17,253 bases of DNA from Nitrospirota bacterium. GTDB lineage: Bacteria > Nitrospirota > Thermodesulfovibrionia > Thermodesulfovibrionales > Dissulfurispiraceae. The stretch is taken from positions 1 to 17,253 of the forward strand of contig JBFLWF010000039.1 in NCBI GenBank assembly GCA_040758355.1, in the 5' to 3' direction. Shown one piece after another: positions 505-14,213 of this stretch. A program made the position numbers and the translations under genes. Each line of letters opens with the position of its first letter. Position 1 is the stretch's first letter. Under the pieces are notes generated by a model that was given only the letters and a program-made list of their open reading frames with translations, was not told the origin of the DNA and ran no database searches.

Positions 505-1836
505 ATGCATATCACAATTATCGGAACCGGTTATGTAGGACTTGTTACAGGCGCCTGCTTTTCAGAATTCGGAGTGTTTGTAACGTGTATCGATAAGGAT
601 AAAAATAAAATAGAGTCCTTAAAGAATGGCGTCATTCCTTTCTATGAGCCGGGGCTTGAAGATCTTGTAAAAAGAAATTTCAAGCAAGGCAGGCTAAAAT
701 TTTCCACAGATATTGGGGAGGCAGTCGAAGAATCTCTCGTTATTTTTATTGCTGTGGGTACTCCTCCGCGGGGCGATGGTTCTGCAGACCTCAGTTATGT
801 GGATGATGTTGCAAAAGAGATCGCAAATCACATCAAAAGCTATAAAGTCATCGTTACAAAAAGCACCGTGCCGGTCGGTACAGGAGAGAGAATAAGAAAG
901 ATAATATCACAGCATCTGAAGGAAGAAGTCGATTTCGATATAGTCTCGAATCCTGAATTTCTCCGCGAAGGTGCTGCGATAGAGGATTTCATGAGGCCCA
1001 ACAGGATTGTAATAGGAGCAAGGAGCCAGCAGGCAGTAGCAATAATGAAAGACCTGTATAAGCCCCTCTATTTGATCGAGACGCCGTTTGTGATAACAAA
1101 CATAGAGACTGCAGAGCTAATCAAATATGCATCTAACTCATTCCTTGCAACAAAAGTCTCGTTTATCAATGAAATGGCAAACCTCTGTGAAAAGGTTGGT
1201 GCAGATGTCAATGTGGTTGCAAAAGGCATGGGGCTTGACGGAAGGATCGGCCCGAAATTTCTTCATGCTGGCCCTGGATTTGGAGGCTCATGTTTTCCAA
1301 AAGACACAAAGGCATTATTAAAAATCGCATCTGACCACAATGTTGATCTCGGAATCGTGGATGCCGCCATAAAGGCAAATGAAAGACAGATGTTATTGGC
1401 ATCGGAAAAAATTAAAAACACGCTTAACGACATTAAAGGCAAAACCATCGCAATCCTCGGACTTTCCTTTAAGCCAAATACAGACGACATAAGGGAAGCG
1501 CCTGCGATATCCATTATCCAGAGTTTATTGAATGCAGGTGCCAATATCAGGGCATACGACCCGGTTGCAATGGATAATACAAAAACAGTATTGCCGCATA
1601 TAACCTACTGCAACGATGCATACGATGCATGTGAAGGCGCAGATGCAGTTGTGATTGTCACAGAATGGAACCAGTTCAGGAATCTTGAAACAGAGAGGCT
1701 AATGAAGCTTTTGAAACAGCCTTATTTCTTCGACCTGAGAAATATATATGACCCCCAGAAGATGCAGGCACTGGGATTCAGGTATTATTCTGTAGGAAGA
1801 GCAACGGAGCAACAGAGCAGAAGCGCAGAAGCATAG
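505..1836 (+). CDS. ugd: UDP-glucose/GDP-mannose 6-dehydrogenase
   Basis: N-terminal Rossmann motif IGTGYVG, KSTVPVGT, SNPEFLREG, catalytic GFGGSCFPKD, FKPNTDDIRE; GAGGTG RBS upstream. Confidence 0.95.
   Translation: MHITIIGTGYVGLVTGACFSEFGVFVTCIDKDKNKIESLKNGVIPFYEPGLEDLVKRNFKQGRLKFSTDIGEAVEESLVIFIAVGTPPRGDGSADLSYVDDVAKEIANHIKSYKVIVTKSTVPVGTGERIRKIISQHLKEEVDFDIVSNPEFLREGAAIEDFMRPNRIVIGARSQQAVAIMKDLYKPLYLIETPFVITNIETAELIKYASNSFLATKVSFINEMANLCEKVGADVNVVAKGMGLDGRIGPKFLHAGPGFGGSCFPKDTKALLKIASDHNVDLGIVDAAIKANERQMLLASEKIKNTLNDIKGKTIAILGLSFKPNTDDIREAPAISIIQSLLNAGANIRAYDPVAMDNTKTVLPHITYCNDAYDACEGADAVVIVTEWNQFRNLETERLMKLLKQPYFFDLRNIYDPQKMQALGFRYYSVGRATEQQSRSAEA
1797..1832 (+). repeat. Left arm of 8-nt-period inverted repeat flanking the four-helix-bundle gene
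   Basis: AAGAGCAA CGGAGCAA CAGAGCAG AAGCGCAG AAGC; 30/36 identical to the reverse complement of 2194-2229. Confidence 0.85.
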
Positions 1837-1846
1837 AAAAACGGAA

Positions 1847-2194
1847 ATGGCTAAATACAAAAATCTTGTTGTCTGGCAAAAAGCTAATCTGCTTGCCCTT
1901 AAAGTTTACAAACTTACGGAAGATTTCCCGAAAAAAGAAACTTTGGGGATTGCAAGTCAACTGAGAAGATCTGCCCTTTCGGTGCCAACGAATATCGTTG
2001 AAGGTTATGGCCGCAAAAGCAAAACAGAACTTTCCCGTTTTATTGACATATCGCTTGGTTCTCTTGCAGAAACCGAATATCTCATCGAGTTTTCAAAGGA
2101 GCGTGGATATGCGAAAAATGATATCTCTGATGAGATAGAGGCGCTTATTGAAGAAGTCGGAAAGCTCTTGTGGAGCTTCCAAAAAAGCCTTTAG
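1847..2194 (+). CDS. Four helix bundle protein (23S rRNA intervening-sequence protein / Avd-like family)
   Basis: 115 aa with family-typical motifs YKNLVVWQKA, LTEDFPKKE, SQLRRSALSVPTNIVEGYGR, RFIDISLGSLAETEY. Confidence 0.92.
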   Translation: MAKYKNLVVWQKANLLALKVYKLTEDFPKKETLGIASQLRRSALSVPTNIVEGYGRKSKTELSRFIDISLGSLAETEYLIEFSKERGYAKNDISDEIEALIEEVGKLLWSFQKSL

Positions 2195-2778
2195 CTACTG
2201 CTCTTCTGCTCTATTGCTCTACTGCTCTTAAGGATATTCCTGAAACACGGGGAATTGCGGATATTATCATACGTCTTTGATGTCTTGATGTAGTTCCAGT
2301 TGTTATATCCCTTTTCTATAGCCATTTTCAGCCATCTGCAAGCCTCATCCGCATCATTTTTTGCAGAATAAAGTTCAGCCATACTGTTCAATGCATATAT
2401 ATTTTCAGAATTAATCTCGAGGGACTTTCTAATGTCTTTTTCTGCATCTTCTAATCTGCCCATCATAATATAGGCAAAACCGCGATTGTTATATGGGATG
2501 CCATTTTGTGGATTCAATTCAATTGCCTTAGAAAAATCCGCAATTGCAAGCTCATATTGCCCTGTCTGCATATATGAGTTTCCTCTGTTGTTATAAGAAG
2601 CAAAGAAATTCTGATTTAATTCTATAGCTTTGGTGAGATCAGCAATTGCAAGGTCGTATTGCCCTTTATAATAATAGGCAGAACCCCTATTACTATATGC
2701 TCTATAATCCGAGGGGTTTAACTCTATGGCCCTGGTAAACTTTATTATATCGAGGTCATGTTTTAATTTTTTGCTCAT
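2191..2778 (-). CDS. Tetratricopeptide repeat protein
   Basis: 34-aa repeats (AYSNRG..Y...GQYDLAIADLTKAIELN; SYNNRG..Y...GQYELAIADFSKAIELNP). ATG at 2778 preferred over TTG at 2802, start uncertain. The last residues are encoded by the repeat arm. Confidence 0.88.
   Translation of the reverse strand: MSKKLKHDLDIIKFTRAIELNPSDYRAYSNRGSAYYYKGQYDLAIADLTKAIELNQNFFASYNNRGNSYMQTGQYELAIADFSKAIELNPQNGIPYNNRGFAYIMMGRLEDAEKDIRKSLEINSENIYALNSMAELYSAKNDADEACRWLKMAIEKGYNNWNYIKTSKTYDNIRNSPCFRNILKSSRAIEQKSSS
2194..2229 (-). repeat. Right arm of 8-nt-period inverted repeat flanking the four-helix-bundle gene
   Basis: Reverse complement AAGAGCAG TAGAGCAA TAGAGCAG AAGAGCAG TAGC; begins at the stop codon of the four-helix-bundle ORF. 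Confidence 0.85.
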
Positions 2779-2848
2779 TGAATCAATATTACTACTCAAC
2801 AAAGCAAGCTGTCAAAAGGTTCTTTCTACTGTCGCCGAGGTTCACACC

Positions 2849-2866
2849 GTGTTGTAAAATAGACAC
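2849..2866. promoter_or_regulatory. Putative enhancer-binding-protein site (GTGT-N10-ACAC)
   Basis: GTGTTGTAAAATAGACAC contains TGT-N10-ACA and ends about 120 bp upstream of a sigma54 -24/-12 motif. Confidence 0.45.
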
Positions 2867-2876
2867 AGGATTCATT

Positions 2877-2980
2877 CAAGCAGTAAAGTAGTTAAGCAGT
2901 TAAGAATCTAAAGACATAGCACTAAAAATATCCTATTTTCAAGCCCTTAACTACCACGTACTTAAACCTTTTGCTACTTA
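2877..2980. repeat. Decayed inverted 8-nt-period repeat element
   Basis: Left CAAGCAGT AAAGTAGT TAAGCAGT TAAGAATC; right arm 2946-2980 reverse complement TAAGTAGCAAAAGGTTTAAGTACGTGGTAGTTAAG. Confidence 0.55.
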
Positions 2981-2987
2981 GGGGGTC

Positions 2988-3003
2988 TGGCATATTTGTT
3001 GCT
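2988..3003 (+). promoter_or_regulatory. Sigma54 (-24/-12) promoter upstream of the porin gene
   Basis: TGGCAT-ATTTG-TTGCT matches TGGCAY-N5-TTGCW with exact GG/GC spacing. Confidence 0.7.
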
Positions 3004-3054
3004 TATTTTTGTATTGGAATTTTGTTCTTTGTTAATTCTAAGTTTAGGTCTTCC

Positions 3055-3234: not shown

Positions 3235-3312
3235 CCGTAATGCGTAATCCGTAAAGCGTAATGAGTAAAAATTCTAAAGTACTCATCACGCATAACTCAT
3301 CACGCATCACGG
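3235..3312. repeat. Hairpin of inverted 7-nt tandem repeats (GCGTRAT)
   Basis: Left CCGTAAT GCGTAAT CCGTAAA GCGTAAT GAGTA; right arm reverse complement CCGTGAT GCGTGAT GAGTTAT GCGTGAT GAGTA; 26/33 identical, 12-nt loop. Confidence 0.88.
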
Positions 3313-5147: not shown

Positions 5148-5624
5148 TCAGCTTCTAATCTCCTTCAACAAACACACTGCCTGTGCTGCAATGCCTTCTC
5201 CCCGACCAACAAACCCCATTCCTTCATTTGTCTTTGCCTTGATATTCAAAATTGCGGGAGAAATCCCTGCCTGTGAAATAGCATCTTTCATTGTGTTTAT
5301 ATGGGGTGCAATCTTTGGCCTTTCTGTTATGATTATGGAATCGATCCAGACAATCTCAAAGCCCTTTGATTTTGCGAGCTCAACGATGTGTTTTAAAAGC
5401 ATGATGCTTGAGGCATCTTTCCACCTATTGTCAGTATCAGGAAAATGTTTTCCTATGTCCCCTGCACCAATTGCGCCTATAATCGCATCAATAATTGCAT
5501 GACAGAGCACATCGCCGTCCGAATGTCCGAGGAGACCTTTTTCAAATGGGATATCAATGCCGCCGAGGATGAGCTTTCTACCCTCAACGAGCCTGTGCGA
5601 ATCGTAGCCAATGCCTATTCTCAT
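5148..5624 (-). CDS. ispF: 2-C-methyl-D-erythritol 2,4-cyclodiphosphate synthase
   Basis: MRIGIGYDSH, GHSDGDVLCHA, GDIGKHFPDTD, KAKTNEGMGFVGRGEGIAA; ATGA overlap with ispD. Confidence 0.97.
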   Translation of the reverse strand: MRIGIGYDSHRLVEGRKLILGGIDIPFEKGLLGHSDGDVLCHAIIDAIIGAIGAGDIGKHFPDTDNRWKDASSIMLLKHIVELAKSKGFEIVWIDSIIITERPKIAPHINTMKDAISQAGISPAILNIKAKTNEGMGFVGRGEGIAAQAVCLLKEIRS

Positions 5625-6406
5625 ATATTTTTCATAAGTGCTTCGGCGATATCTATATCTTCTGGCGTGGTTATTTTTATATTCCTGTATGAGCCCATTA
5701 TAATCTTAATCTTTCCGCCGTAACGCTCAATCAAAGCAGCATCATCGGTAGCGTAATATCTATCAGCAGTTGCCTTCCCGTATGCGTCTCTGATCTTTTC
5801 AAAGAAAAACACCTGCGGCGTTTGAATTGCCCACAAAACATTGCGGTTTAAAGTCTTTTCGACTATGAACTCCGGGGACAGTCCCGAATCGGAGCCTGCC
5901 CCGCACAACGATGCGGGGGCTTCGCCCGTAATTCTGGGACAGTCCCCTCTGCCATGCTGTCTTCTGGCTTCTTTAATAGTATCCTTGACAGGAACACCAA
6001 CCACAACCCCTTCACAGTCCTTCAACTCACTCAGGGATTTCCTGATAAGGTCGGCTTCTATAAGGGGTCTCACTCCGTCATGTATCAACACAACCGATGT
6101 TTTATCATCGAGTACCTTAAGGGCATTGTAAACAGAGTCCTGTCTCTCCTGTCCGCCGGGCACTATGCGCTTTACCTTTGTGATATTGTATTGCTCTACG
6201 AGGTCGCCGCACACAATCAAGTCGTCTTCTTTCAGTACAGGGATTATTTCCGCTATTTCCTCGATGCCCTGAAGCGTCTCGAGTGTCCATATAATCAGCG
6301 GTTTTTCCAAGAGGGGATGGAAGGGTTTGTTTTTTTCTTCGCCAAACCTCTTTCCAAGCCCTGCTGCAGGGACTATGGCAACAACTCTATCTCTTTTAGT
6401 CTTCAT
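5621..6406 (-). CDS. ispD: 2-C-methyl-D-erythritol 4-phosphate cytidylyltransferase, with an in-frame repeat insertion
   Basis: PAAGLGKRF, GGQERQDSV, IHDGVRP, QTPQVF, TDDA, NIKITTPEDI; about 25 extra residues after DTIKE. Confidence 0.95.
   Translation of the reverse strand: MKTKRDRVVAIVPAAGLGKRFGEEKNKPFHPLLEKPLIIWTLETLQGIEEIAEIIPVLKEDDLIVCGDLVEQYNITKVKRIVPGGQERQDSVYNALKVLDDKTSVVLIHDGVRPLIEADLIRKSLSELKDCEGVVVGVPVKDTIKEARRQHGRGDCPRITGEAPASLCGAGSDSGLSPEFIVEKTLNRNVLWAIQTPQVFFFEKIRDAYGKATADRYYATDDAALIERYGGKIKIIMGSYRNIKITTPEDIDIAEALMKNI
5874..5947. repeat. REP-like nested palindromic element inside ispD
   Basis: GGGACAGTCCC at 5875-5885 and 5936-5946; arms GGGGACAGTCCCGAAT / ATTCTGGGACAGTCCCC; inner hairpin CCCCGCA-CAACGA-TGCGGGG. 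Confidence 0.8.
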
Positions 6407-6414
6407 TGAGCTAT

Positions 6415-6540
6415 CAAATCCTAAATTCTAATATCTAAATCCTAATCAAATTATAAACCCAAACAACCCAAATTCAAAAAATTTCAACCATTACAACATT
6501 GGATACTGTTTAGGATTTAGTGCTTAGAGCTTAGAGTTTG
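6415..6540. repeat. Inverted AT-rich 7-nt tandem repeat element (AAATYCT)
   Basis: Left CAAATCCTAAATTCTAATATCTAAATCCTAATCAAAT; right arm reverse complement CAAACTCTAAGCTCTAAGCACTAAATCCTAAACAGTAT; fills the PIN/TRAM-ispD intergenic gap. Confidence 0.8.
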
Positions 6541-11583: not shown

Positions 11584-13998
11584 TTACCATACGAGAAAAA
11601 GTTTTTTAAAATTCATTAACTCATCCCTGACAGTCTTTGCTTCCGTGAATTGCAAATCCTTCCACGTCTTTATCTCAAGCCTTCCACCGGGCAGTTCCTT
11701 AATACCAATAGCCCCTTCCTTGTCGGTTCTGAATATTTTTACGCCATCAAGCATATCGAGTGCTTCGTCATGCGGATGGTTGTATGAATTTTTTCTTCCA
11801 ACGCTTATCACGGCAATATCTGGAGAAACAGCAGAAACAAACACCTGCGACGAGGATGTGCGGCTGCCGTGATGAGGGACTTTCAGGACATTGCTTTTAA
11901 GATATTCTCCAAAATGCGACAGATCTTCTTCTGCCTCTTCTTCAATATCTCCTGCAAAAAGAAAAGTATTCTTATGGCCCTGAATCCTCAAAACAATGGA
12001 ATCATTATTCTCATCGCTGTCTCTTGAATGCATTGTGTAAAAACCATCATAGGGATGAAGGACAGTAATTATGTATCCACTCCCTTCAATAACATCGCCC
12101 CTCTGTAGTTTTCTAATCCGCAATCCCATGAATCCTTGGGGATAAATGAGTCTGCCGTTGTCCCATATCTCTTGAATATTAAAATTCCTTAAAAGATGAA
12201 ATATTCCACCTGCGTGGTCGGATTGTCCGTGGGATAAAATAATAGCATCGATATTTTTGATCCCTCTGTATTTTAAAAACCCGCCTGTCTGAAAACCCTT
12301 TCTGCCAGCATCTATCACAAGAGTCCTCTTATCAGGAAGTTCAACCACTGCAGAATCTCCCTGCCCCACATCAAGATAGGTGATACTTATCCCATTGGGT
12401 TCAAGAAGTTTGATGCCAGCGTAAAAAACAATCGGAAGAATTGCAACACCAGCCGGAATGGCTATAGGCAATAGGCGATAGGCTGAAGGATGTAAAATCA
12501 AAAAAACATAAACCAGAATCCCGAGATAAAATATAACCAACAATACAGGAGGGAATGCGGGAATCTTTATGTCTACAAAATTCCACTGTGCGGTGTACTT
12601 TATTGCATCAAGAACGAAAATTGTAATCGCATCGATAAACGAAGATAGCAGGAAAACACCTGAAGCAAGAAAAACAAACGAAGACACGAGGGATAAAGGA
12701 AGAACAACAAATCCGATAACAGGTGTAATAATAAGATTTGTAATGGGCGATACGAGAGAAAAATAATGGAAATAATAAGCAACAAGCGGTGCAGTTCCGA
12801 TGGTTGCAGCAAGGGAGATCAGTAATGGAGTGATGGAGTAATGGAGTAATGTTTTTTTCCAATACTCCACCACTCCATTACTCCGGTTCTTTTTGCTCCA
12901 TGACTCCATCACTCCATCTTTTCTTTGTTCTGCAACCATTCCTATGCATAATACAGCGATAAAAGAGAGCTGGAATGAGAGGTCGAGGATCGAATCAGGC
13001 TGGATTAAAATTATCACTACTGCTGCAAAGAGCAGTGTATTCAGCCAGAACCCTTTTCGATGAATGAGTAGGCTGGAGAGGAAAAATGTAATCATAATAA
13101 AAGACCTTATGGAAGGTATGCTCATGTCCGATATTCCGAGATAGCCGATCATAAATGGAATGCATAAGATTGCAGCAATTTGAGAAGGGGTGAGATAAAG
13201 CGTCAATCTGACAAGCATATTATACGGCAATGCCTTTAAGAGAAATCTGAACAGTCTGAACAAGATAAACAGCAATAAACCGAAATGTGCCCCTGATATG
13301 CTCAGTATATGCGCAAGTCCTGTGGCATTAAATGCATCCCTCGTCTCCTTTGTCAGCAAACTGCGCTCTCCTGTTGTTATAGACATGAGAAAAGGAGATG
13401 ATTCCGAAGAAAAATTCCTCTTCATGAAGTCATTAAGCCGTATTCTTAACCTCTTAAAAAATCCGTTAGGATTACTGCCGGCATCCTTGATCTCAACAGC
13501 ATATCCCGAAAGGAGATTATGATTGCTCCCCGGATTTAAAGAGTATGCATCCTTAGGAATATGCGCCTTGATGTGGTATATCCTGTCTGAAAGCAATACC
13601 CTATTGCTTATTAATCGCAATTCTTTTAAATTCTCCGGCTCTCTGATTTCTATTCTCTGGGAAAAGGCTGCCACGCCTTGATATGATTCAGGATCCAACG
13701 AAACGGCTTCTGAATTTGTCACGCCTCGAAGCTCTATAGTTTCACCGGCAATATGAGAAAGGGAAGGCTGCTGTATATATAAAAACTTCGCGTAATAAAA
13801 TCCTGAAACAGCAATAACCAAAAACCAGAACACAGAGAACAGAATACAGAAAACAGACTTAACATCTTTCTGATTTCTGAACTTTGAAAAAGCCAATAAG
13901 ACTATCAATATCAGGGATATAAAAACACTTAAAAAAGGGAAGAATCTATGGATATAAAAAAGTGCTGTGCCGCAAATGAATGAAATAAAATAGCTCAT
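11584..13998 (-). CDS. comEC: DNA internalization competence protein ComEC/Rec2
   Basis: TGLAHILSISGAH, SIRS, LSFQLSF, LDVGQGDS, metallo-beta-lactamase domain with NNDSIVL, GDIE, LKVPHHGS, YNHPH. Confidence 0.95.
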   Translation of the reverse strand: MSYFISFICGTALFYIHRFFPFLSVFISLILIVLLAFSKFRNQKDVKSVFCILFSVFWFLVIAVSGFYYAKFLYIQQPSLSHIAGETIELRGVTNSEAVSLDPESYQGVAAFSQRIEIREPENLKELRLISNRVLLSDRIYHIKAHIPKDAYSLNPGSNHNLLSGYAVEIKDAGSNPNGFFKRLRIRLNDFMKRNFSSESSPFLMSITTGERSLLTKETRDAFNATGLAHILSISGAHFGLLLFILFRLFRFLLKALPYNMLVRLTLYLTPSQIAAILCIPFMIGYLGISDMSIPSIRSFIMITFFLSSLLIHRKGFWLNTLLFAAVVIILIQPDSILDLSFQLSFIAVLCIGMVAEQRKDGVMESWSKKNRSNGVVEYWKKTLLHYSITPLLISLAATIGTAPLVAYYFHYFSLVSPITNLIITPVIGFVVLPLSLVSSFVFLASGVFLLSSFIDAITIFVLDAIKYTAQWNFVDIKIPAFPPVLLVIFYLGILVYVFLILHPSAYRLLPIAIPAGVAILPIVFYAGIKLLEPNGISITYLDVGQGDSAVVELPDKRTLVIDAGRKGFQTGGFLKYRGIKNIDAIILSHGQSDHAGGIFHLLRNFNIQEIWDNGRLIYPQGFMGLRIRKLQRGDVIEGSGYIITVLHPYDGFYTMHSRDSDENNDSIVLRIQGHKNTFLFAGDIEEEAEEDLSHFGEYLKSNVLKVPHHGSRTSSSQVFVSAVSPDIAVISVGRKNSYNHPHDEALDMLDGVKIFRTDKEGAIGIKELPGGRLEIKTWKDLQFTEAKTVRDELMNFKKLFLVW
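12459..12493. repeat. 7-nt tandem repeat tract (AGGCnAT), in-frame in comEC
   Basis: TGGCTAT AGGCAAT AGGCGAT AGGCTGA AGGATGT; no inverted partner seen. Confidence 0.6.
12821..12918. repeat. Inverted 8-nt tandem repeat element (GGAGTRAT), in-frame in comEC
   Basis: AGTAATGG AGTGATGG AGTAATGG AGTAATG (12821-12851), inverted CCAATACT CCACCACT CCATTACT CC (12859-12884), and a second inverted arm GCTCCATGACTCCATCACTCCATC (12895-12918). Confidence 0.88.
13817..13889. repeat. Inverted 7-nt tandem repeat element (nACAGAA), in-frame in comEC
   Basis: ACCAAAA ACCAGAA CACAGAG AACAGAA TACAGAA AACAGAC, then inverted TCTGATT TCTGAAC TTTGAAA. Confidence 0.7.
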
Positions 13999-14213
13999 GG
14001 CTCATAGTGATTCCAATCTAAAAATATATGTCAGGTGCTGCGAAAAGACTTTAAACCACGCACTTGTAAAGACATTTATCCTGTATCCGTCATCTACTAC
14101 ATTGGATACTTGATGGATAATGCATTTATTATCTCTCATATACGCTTGAACCAACACTTTTTAAAGTCTTTGAGCAGTGCCTGACATATATAAAAAGCTA
14201 TGAGCTATGAACT
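13992..14213. repeat. Inverted 7-nt-period arms (GCTCATA) bracketing the glmM-comEC intergenic region
   Basis: Left AGCTCATGGCTCATAGT (13992-14008) versus reverse complement of 14197-14213 AGTTCATAGCTCATAGC, 14/17 identical. Confidence 0.7.
14024..14191. other. 168-nt rod-like fold-back element (MITE-like or structured ncRNA)
   Basis: 32-nt terminal inverted repeats (14024-14055 and 14160-14191, 28/32 identical) plus internal stems CATTTATCC/GGATAATG and GTATCC/GGATAC. Confidence 0.7.

Follow-up and report, generated by a model that had tools for sequence, protein, structure and literature searches.

The closest described systems are the intervening sequences (IVSs) of 23S rRNA genes, e.g., in helix 45 of Coxiella burnetii and in Leptospira, in which an ORF of the S23p family (PF05635) is situated in the loop of terminal inverted repeats. 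These IVSs measure 428-444 nt, and the Coxiella IVS possesses tandem heptamers next to its ORF (PMC4990558). ORFs designated 23S_rRNA_IVP are reported to be scattered over the rRNA insertion sites of CPR bacteria (bioRxiv 10.1101/2024.02.27.582315), and in the available part of a CRISPR discovery paper the 23S rRNA IVP is named in a figure legend alone (PMC10910872). Concerning short tandem repeats, the heptamers of Xanthomonas (GGGAATC) and Nostoc form hundreds of short 7-nt arrays, many of them in close inverted pairs (70 in Xcc). Their over-representation is noted as unexplained, and in the available part of the respective paper, where MITEs and REP-RAYT are also named, they are regarded as DNA forming G-quadruplexes or cruciforms, without a link to a gene (PMC4692102). 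A further relative is Avd of DGRs, a homologous four-helix pentamer for which binding of nucleic acids has been shown (PMC10053308; bioRxiv 10.1101/2023.10.23.563531). In the literature covered, no description was found of four-helix-bundle (FHB) genes within tandem-array arms outside rRNA.

The window, i.e., the whole analysed stretch of 17,253 nt from the genome of a Nitrospirota bacterium (G000), contains an intact FHB gene of 115 aa (1847..2194, plus strand) between two arms, both of which are period-8 tandem arrays. The left arm (1797..1832, plus strand) is purine-rich and consists of about 4.5 units of the AGAGCAAC/AGAGCAGA type, and the right arm (2194..2229, minus strand) of about 4.3 inverted units. 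At a spacing of 361 nt, the arms pair at 30 of 36 nt (83%) and constitute the longest inverted repeat listed in the window (36 nt), whereas none of 3000 random genomic 36-mers had at least 24 matches at 300-560 nt (best 23); the arms around an intact gene that the initial annotation had described are thus real. Its statement that the loop is almost exactly the ORF is likewise borne out, with 348 of the 361 loop bases coding; the FHB stop codon shares bases with the right arm (its first base) and with the stop codon of the convergent TPR gene. Further 7-/8-nt arm pairs exist elsewhere in the window, such that the cassette pair is one of several.

The protein matches TIGR02436 with 115.3 bits (cut-off 24) and PF05635 with 122.6 bits (cut-off 33.8). 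Its closest solved structure is Xcc0516 (2GSC, E 2e-18, 5 chains), which is described as a homopentameric ring (PMC4990558), and by homology to 2GSC the window protein is predicted to be homopentameric as well. The cassette, at about 433 nt, resembles the S23p IVSs of 23S rRNA in its packaging, as had been proposed, although its unit is of 8 nt and not a heptamer. It differs from them in its position between two convergent protein genes, the coding sequences of which include the arms, and, being outside rRNA, is not a member of the 23S rRNA IVSs. The flanks of the six FHB matches in G000, read over 170 nt per side, showed no rRNA, and an Rfam scan of the window detected a tRNA (302-373) and the end of a 16S gene (1-123) and nothing else. 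Gene and arms very probably form a discrete unit. The qualification of this unit as autonomous, in contrast, is unsupported, because the FHB gene is its sole gene and a search for a transposase or recombinase in the cassette gave no Pfam or NCBIfam match, the matches being to FHB/Avd-like families alone.

Both neighbouring genes end within an arm. The ugd gene (505..1836, plus strand; UDP-glucose/nucleotide-sugar dehydrogenase, TIGR03026 492 bits) is resident and congener-like, its product being 89-92% identical to those of four congeners, and the left arm supplies its final 11 residues. The C-terminus reads SVGR-ATEQQSRSAEA, in which R is ancestral and 11 residues are added; the arm codes for RATEQQSRSAE, i.e., one residue beyond the RATEQQSRSA given earlier. 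Of 30 Ugd loci fetched (34 genomes matched), 28 complete orthologues remained after removal of the window and of one locus cut at a contig end, and all 28 stop 0-5 residues past GR, as compared to 11 in the window. The junction between ugd and TPR is 450 nt long in the window and 39-113 nt in seven of the eight relatives with a convergent TPR gene, such that the empty junction sought in relatives is found in these seven. Because the orthologues end near GR and the junctions of the relatives are empty, the tail of Ugd is, judged from sequence, arm-derived, in agreement with the initial annotation. In the eighth relative (G003), the junction contains an unrelated coiled-coil-like ORF of 115 aa without such arms. 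This ORF (L004:2886-3233) exhibits 7-residue repeats (FEAIDRR) and has no Pfam match.

The TPR gene (TPR_END_plus; 2191..2802, minus strand) ends in KSSRAIEQKSSS, which coincides exactly with the right arm. The tail is therefore arm-encoded as claimed, whereas its acquisition at this site is not upheld, since the TPR gene is foreign and came with the arm. Among the TPR loci examined (30 fetched, with 57 of 68 family genomes matched, plus L104), the nearest orthologues, G060 and G006, retain right-arm units without the FHB gene: the junction of G060 keeps three units, which code for the TPR tail KSGRAEEQGN, and G006 keeps two at the TPR end, a shorter piece. Gene-less orthologues that keep such a tail would have spoken against the cassette, and these two do so in part, whereas the Ugd orthologues do not; we read the tails of G060 and G006 as relics and not as disproof. 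A single unit is present on either side of the junction in G020, clear arrays of other units are situated at the same TPR end in L202, L203, and L208, and the distant L104 possesses a full armed cassette of the same clade at the same site, with an FHB protein 72% identical to that of the window. Because all these loci carry arms or arrays there, the end of the TPR gene has been occupied repeatedly or long ago, with arms that outlive the gene; the cassette of L104 is as compatible with an old, vertically inherited presence as with repeated targeting. Unrelated FHB cassettes in other genera are found directly downstream of ugd (L012 2850-3176), upstream of ugd (L044, G024), and downstream of TPR (L208, G010).

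Concerning ancestry, the TPR protein of the window shares 64-66% of its residues with those of the congeners, whereas the latter share 72-92% with one another. In the TPR tree the window is sister to G006 (SH-aLRT 97-98) and then to G060 (85), and with tails removed a topology that unites it with the congeners is worse by 61.5 log units (p-AU 1.4e-5); the tree is a 'quick' one with G006 marked as a long branch, and the choice of the AU test followed inspection of the tree. On these phylogenetic grounds, the window TPR is a foreign allele. In run X1, possibly the source sample, a contig over 320-1796 (depth 221) stops with the last base ahead of the left arm. Two alleles follow in the contigs of this one run: that of the window, with 1278 nt and a depth of 195, and one of 923 nt and a depth of 49, which branches at 1796/1797 and rejoins near 3015. 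Runs X2 and X3, in which the shares were small, were left out of consideration for habitat. Aligned to congener G004, the 923-nt allele covers the end of ugd through TPR over 620 nt with 77 differences; it is free of the cassette and carries a congener-type TPR. It may stem from a co-occurring strain.

Because the TPR gene is foreign, its nearest orthologues keep the arm, and the X1 alleles split at 1796/1797, the import of a block is favoured over a fresh insertion: a stretch of about 1.2 kb with the cassette and the foreign TPR probably replaced the resident TPR, the imported part likely being 1797..3014 (cassette, TPR, and upstream region). The insertion into this site suggested by the initial annotation is thus not supported, as the TPR gene arrived together with the arm. 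A clean insertion into a congener-type empty site is ruled out by the TPR tree and the X1 alleles; filled and empty alleles differ by the whole block including TPR and are therefore not a clean insertion pair. A comparison of the flanks at this locus revealed no target-site duplication. The left joint could be the work of the element at its arm or the product of short homology where ugd ends, and the data fit both. Upstream of TPR, the block contains a gene-less 8-nt arm pair (2878..2979; array at 2878-2904, partner found by eye), which is also present in the alternative allele in a diverged form, with 20 other letters over 2878-3044.

Across genomes, 143 FHB loci were compiled from close protein relatives, related genomes, and G000, 140 of them with full flanks. 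At 103 of the 140, the locus's own flanks pair above the 95th percentile of cross-locus controls; at the other 37 this arm test failed. Among 102 armed loci (one was dropped for N), the arms have periods of 7 (48 loci), 8 (44), 9 (5), and 6 (5) nt, and the period follows the protein tree with 16 changes as compared to 40.8 in shuffled data (0 of 200 shuffles as low), the tree being a 'quick' one and the sample biased to relatives of the window protein. Linkage by itself would already make unit and protein vary together in this way. The window protein belongs to a clade (SH-aLRT 98) whose 15 rows stem from four phyla and have related 7- and 8-mers and varying neighbours, e.g., cas4/cas1 and trkA/trkA; at the level of sequence comparison, this distribution shows that the gene moves with its arms between phyla and sites. 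A TAnnnT -10 box lies 11-14 nt before the ATG in 10 of the 15 clade members and in 24 of 134 loci overall; the box being situated just before the ATG, the left arm would in these 10 members be outside the gene's own transcript. The window copy is without this box, such that its FHB gene is likely read through from ugd, which ends 10 nt upstream.

In five of the 15 clade members (G000:C24, L107, L109, L112, and L113), the core of a CRISPR-type repeat is found on both sides of the cassette, and L108 contains a 17-nt piece of the core of L113. The duplicated stretches next to the cassettes are of variable length (about 11-31 nt). Both copies that flank the cassette of L107 contain one variant that neither of the other two repeats has, which is the pattern expected of a target duplication. 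The core in G000:C24 matches that of the Rfam CRISPR-DR7 array of L047. The closest paralogue (G000:C24:104-650) has a complete CRISPR-DR7-type repeat on one side and part of such a repeat on the other. Stacked cassettes within one CRISPR array, each behind a repeat or core, are seen in L113:82-1620, L107:607-1260, and L076, the last of which also possesses a gene-less version of 117 nt beside a gene-bearing one with identical ends.

The 2.8-Mb genome G000 contains 600 merged arrays of 7- or 8-nt units; 442 of them have 4-5 copies and 33 have six or more, the short-array end of this peak being cut by the TRF score threshold. At a score of at least 40, short tandem repeats of period 7 (298) and 8 (133) abound, as opposed to 1, 14, and 12 for periods 5, 10, and 11. 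An inverted partner within 700 nt exists for 226 of the 600 arrays, and of 133 gene-less close inverted pairs 118 show the polarity of the cassette, defined from FHB genes of other genomes, 14 the opposite one, and one is a tie. The window's own unit occurs in two such pairs (C10:75593-75684 and C15:13043-13145), both near-ties for polarity. The genome has six TIGR02436 matches, all armed on reading and with different units; among them, the copy on C20 has lost most of its FHB gene, the paralogue at C2:1065 was below threshold in the flank-pairing test and passed in the array survey, and the 9-nt arms at C2:52792 were judged by eye. As there are many unit types and only six FHB matches, most array types are now without a cognate protein. 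Such a composition recalls MITEs and REP-RAYT, in which few gene-bearing copies are accompanied by many gene-less inverted-repeat derivatives, but the cargo of the window cassette is no known transposase, and its ends are tandem arrays with a unit that differs by protein clade. In contrast to the repeats of Xanthomonas and Nostoc, those of G000 comprise many 7- and 8-nt unit types, with some pairs around an FHB gene. In a small sample of genomes, array density tracks the presence of FHB genes weakly, with 27 arrays in a total of 400 kb from ten FHB-positive genomes (three of them without arrays) and 6 in 359 kb from eleven FHB-negative ones (p 0.03, with kin not independent). A second cargo family was sought in the long-loop pairs of G000 and rejected, as 11 of 12 candidates held ordinary genes or no cargo ORF and one was the deleted FHB copy mentioned above. 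Y1 transposases (two matches, one with stops) and Cas1 (two matches) are encoded in G000 and are not linked to the cassette.

With a probability of roughly 0.55, we favour the reading of a selfish cassette: the predicted pentamer would bind the 4-5-unit arms of the cassette that encodes it, host enzymes would mobilise the cassette, and at this locus it would have arrived within the block of about 1.2 kb. In this reading, the FHB protein would form a five-part ring, as its homology to 2GSC suggests, and bind the repeat units of its own arms. Insertion would be rare and depend on a host enzyme that makes staggered cuts close to hairpins or to the ends of genes, which would leave a target duplication. 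Later loss of the gene would give rise to gene-less arm pairs and single arms, some of which would become protein tails, and recombined blocks would spread the cassette further. Direct binding of the arms by the FHB protein is a prediction to which we lean slightly, and, given binding, the odds that the bound form is DNA rather than RNA are about even. More tentatively, and in our opinion with the chances rather against it, FHB proteins might provide the sequence specificity and the drive of a class of mobile elements not yet described: a pentamer would read five tandem units of 6-9 nt at both ends of its own cassette and pass these ends on to a host integrase or recombinase. If so, IVSs in rRNA, giant CRISPR spacers, and the excess of heptamer and octamer arrays would be one system, and the left arm at this locus would be the true end of an element, with the TPR gene carried along.

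The initial annotation had instead regarded the cassette as an RNA stem-loop that is excised by RNase III, like the IVSs of 23S rRNA, which would keep insertions harmless in transcripts. For Coxiella, an IVS with an S23p ORF, a terminal stem of 28 bp, and heptamers is indeed cut by RNase III in vitro (PMC4990558). The fold predicted for 1780-2250 is a strong stem as well (z -4.81; none of 100 shuffles equally stable), and G000 possesses an RNase III gene. The mismatches of the arms nevertheless speak against this explanation: on the sense strand, 136 G-U stand against 187 A-C over the 102 armed loci (28 versus 45 loci; one versus three in the window), counts to which base composition may contribute. 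Selection for a sense-strand RNA stem was thus rejected as a candidate, there being no G-U excess over the 102 loci. Moreover, the -10 box before the ATG in 10 of the 15 clade members would keep the left arm out of the gene's own transcript. Because both arms of the window are coding and precede stop codons, a cut would yield stop-less mRNAs of ugd or TPR, and the first arm would presumably be occupied by ribosomes. Cutting would also account for tolerance but not for spread. Altogether, we consider the excision of an RNA stem-loop unlikely; incidental cutting is possible, as RNase III is present.

Even less probable appears a retro-mobility, in which an Avd-like protein binds the RNA of the cassette and recruits a reverse transcriptase in trans, with the cDNA being inserted under a variable target duplication. 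Avd is a positively charged pentameric barrel that binds DGR RNA and partners with a reverse transcriptase (bioRxiv 10.1101/2023.10.23.563531), and the variable length of the CRISPR-repeat duplications would agree with such a process. The window protein, however, matches Avd weakly and below both cut-offs (NF033474, 26.9 versus 80 bits; PF22296, 34.9 versus 40 bits), and there is no reverse transcriptase beside the gene or in the genome, a PF00078 match being absent from G000 (99% complete). Solitary arrays inside crude ORFs are furthermore without strand bias (79 versus 71), and a leaderless transcript would be without the left arm.

By analogy with TRAP as a repeat-binding regulator, the FHB pentamer might alternatively be a domesticated regulator that binds repeats, for which the arrays at gene ends would be maintained as control elements. 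An orientation bias is indeed seen among solitary arrays close to stop codons (26 versus 4), the length of arrays in general peaks at 4-5 units, and the left arm lies upstream of the likely promoter in the clade, but the patchy presence at the junction within one genus and, likely, within one sample, the many unit types without a cognate gene, and the target-like duplications at CRISPR repeats render this regulatory role decidedly doubtful. That the protein is uninvolved, the arms arising by slippage and intramolecular gene conversion and the small gene spreading only in recombined blocks, would suit the block replacement as the visible event at the locus and a cassette that encodes no enzyme, but is hardly credible, as it leaves unexplained why 103 of 140 loci in a single family are armed and why the gene-less pairs have a fixed polarity, as well as the scarcity of periods 5, 10, and 11 (score of at least 40) and the duplications in CRISPR arrays.

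The locus connects a large protein family of orphan status with the 7-/8-nt arrays of bacteria, which are unexplained and of which this 2.8-Mb genome harbours 600. It offers a natural pair of filled and empty alleles in one sample, with the break at the first base of the arm, and it shows relics of arms turning into protein tails. New at this locus are the foreign TPR, the arm relics that follow TPR, and the split of alleles at 1796/1797. It also calls for caution, as a comparison of filled and empty sites across species can mistake the transfer of a block for an insertion.

Elsewhere in the window, gene-less inverted 7-nt arrays of the TCAGCTA type are situated between the tRNA and ugd (383-410 and 460-490, by eye), and more arrays or pairs of 7- or 8-nt units are found at 3236-3311, 6415-6540, 12821-12918, and 13822-13857, the last two being in frame within a ComEC-like ORF (11584-13998). 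The ORF at 5621-6406, which we take to be IspD-like, seems to contain an extra in-frame segment (RRQHGRGD...SGLSPEF) at about 5850-5960, which is not a tandem array. Finally, a 32-nt inverted repeat without tandem units (14024-14055 and 14160-14191; 88%, 104 nt apart) is present, and sequence similar to it recurs near 110830 of contig C5 of the same genome.
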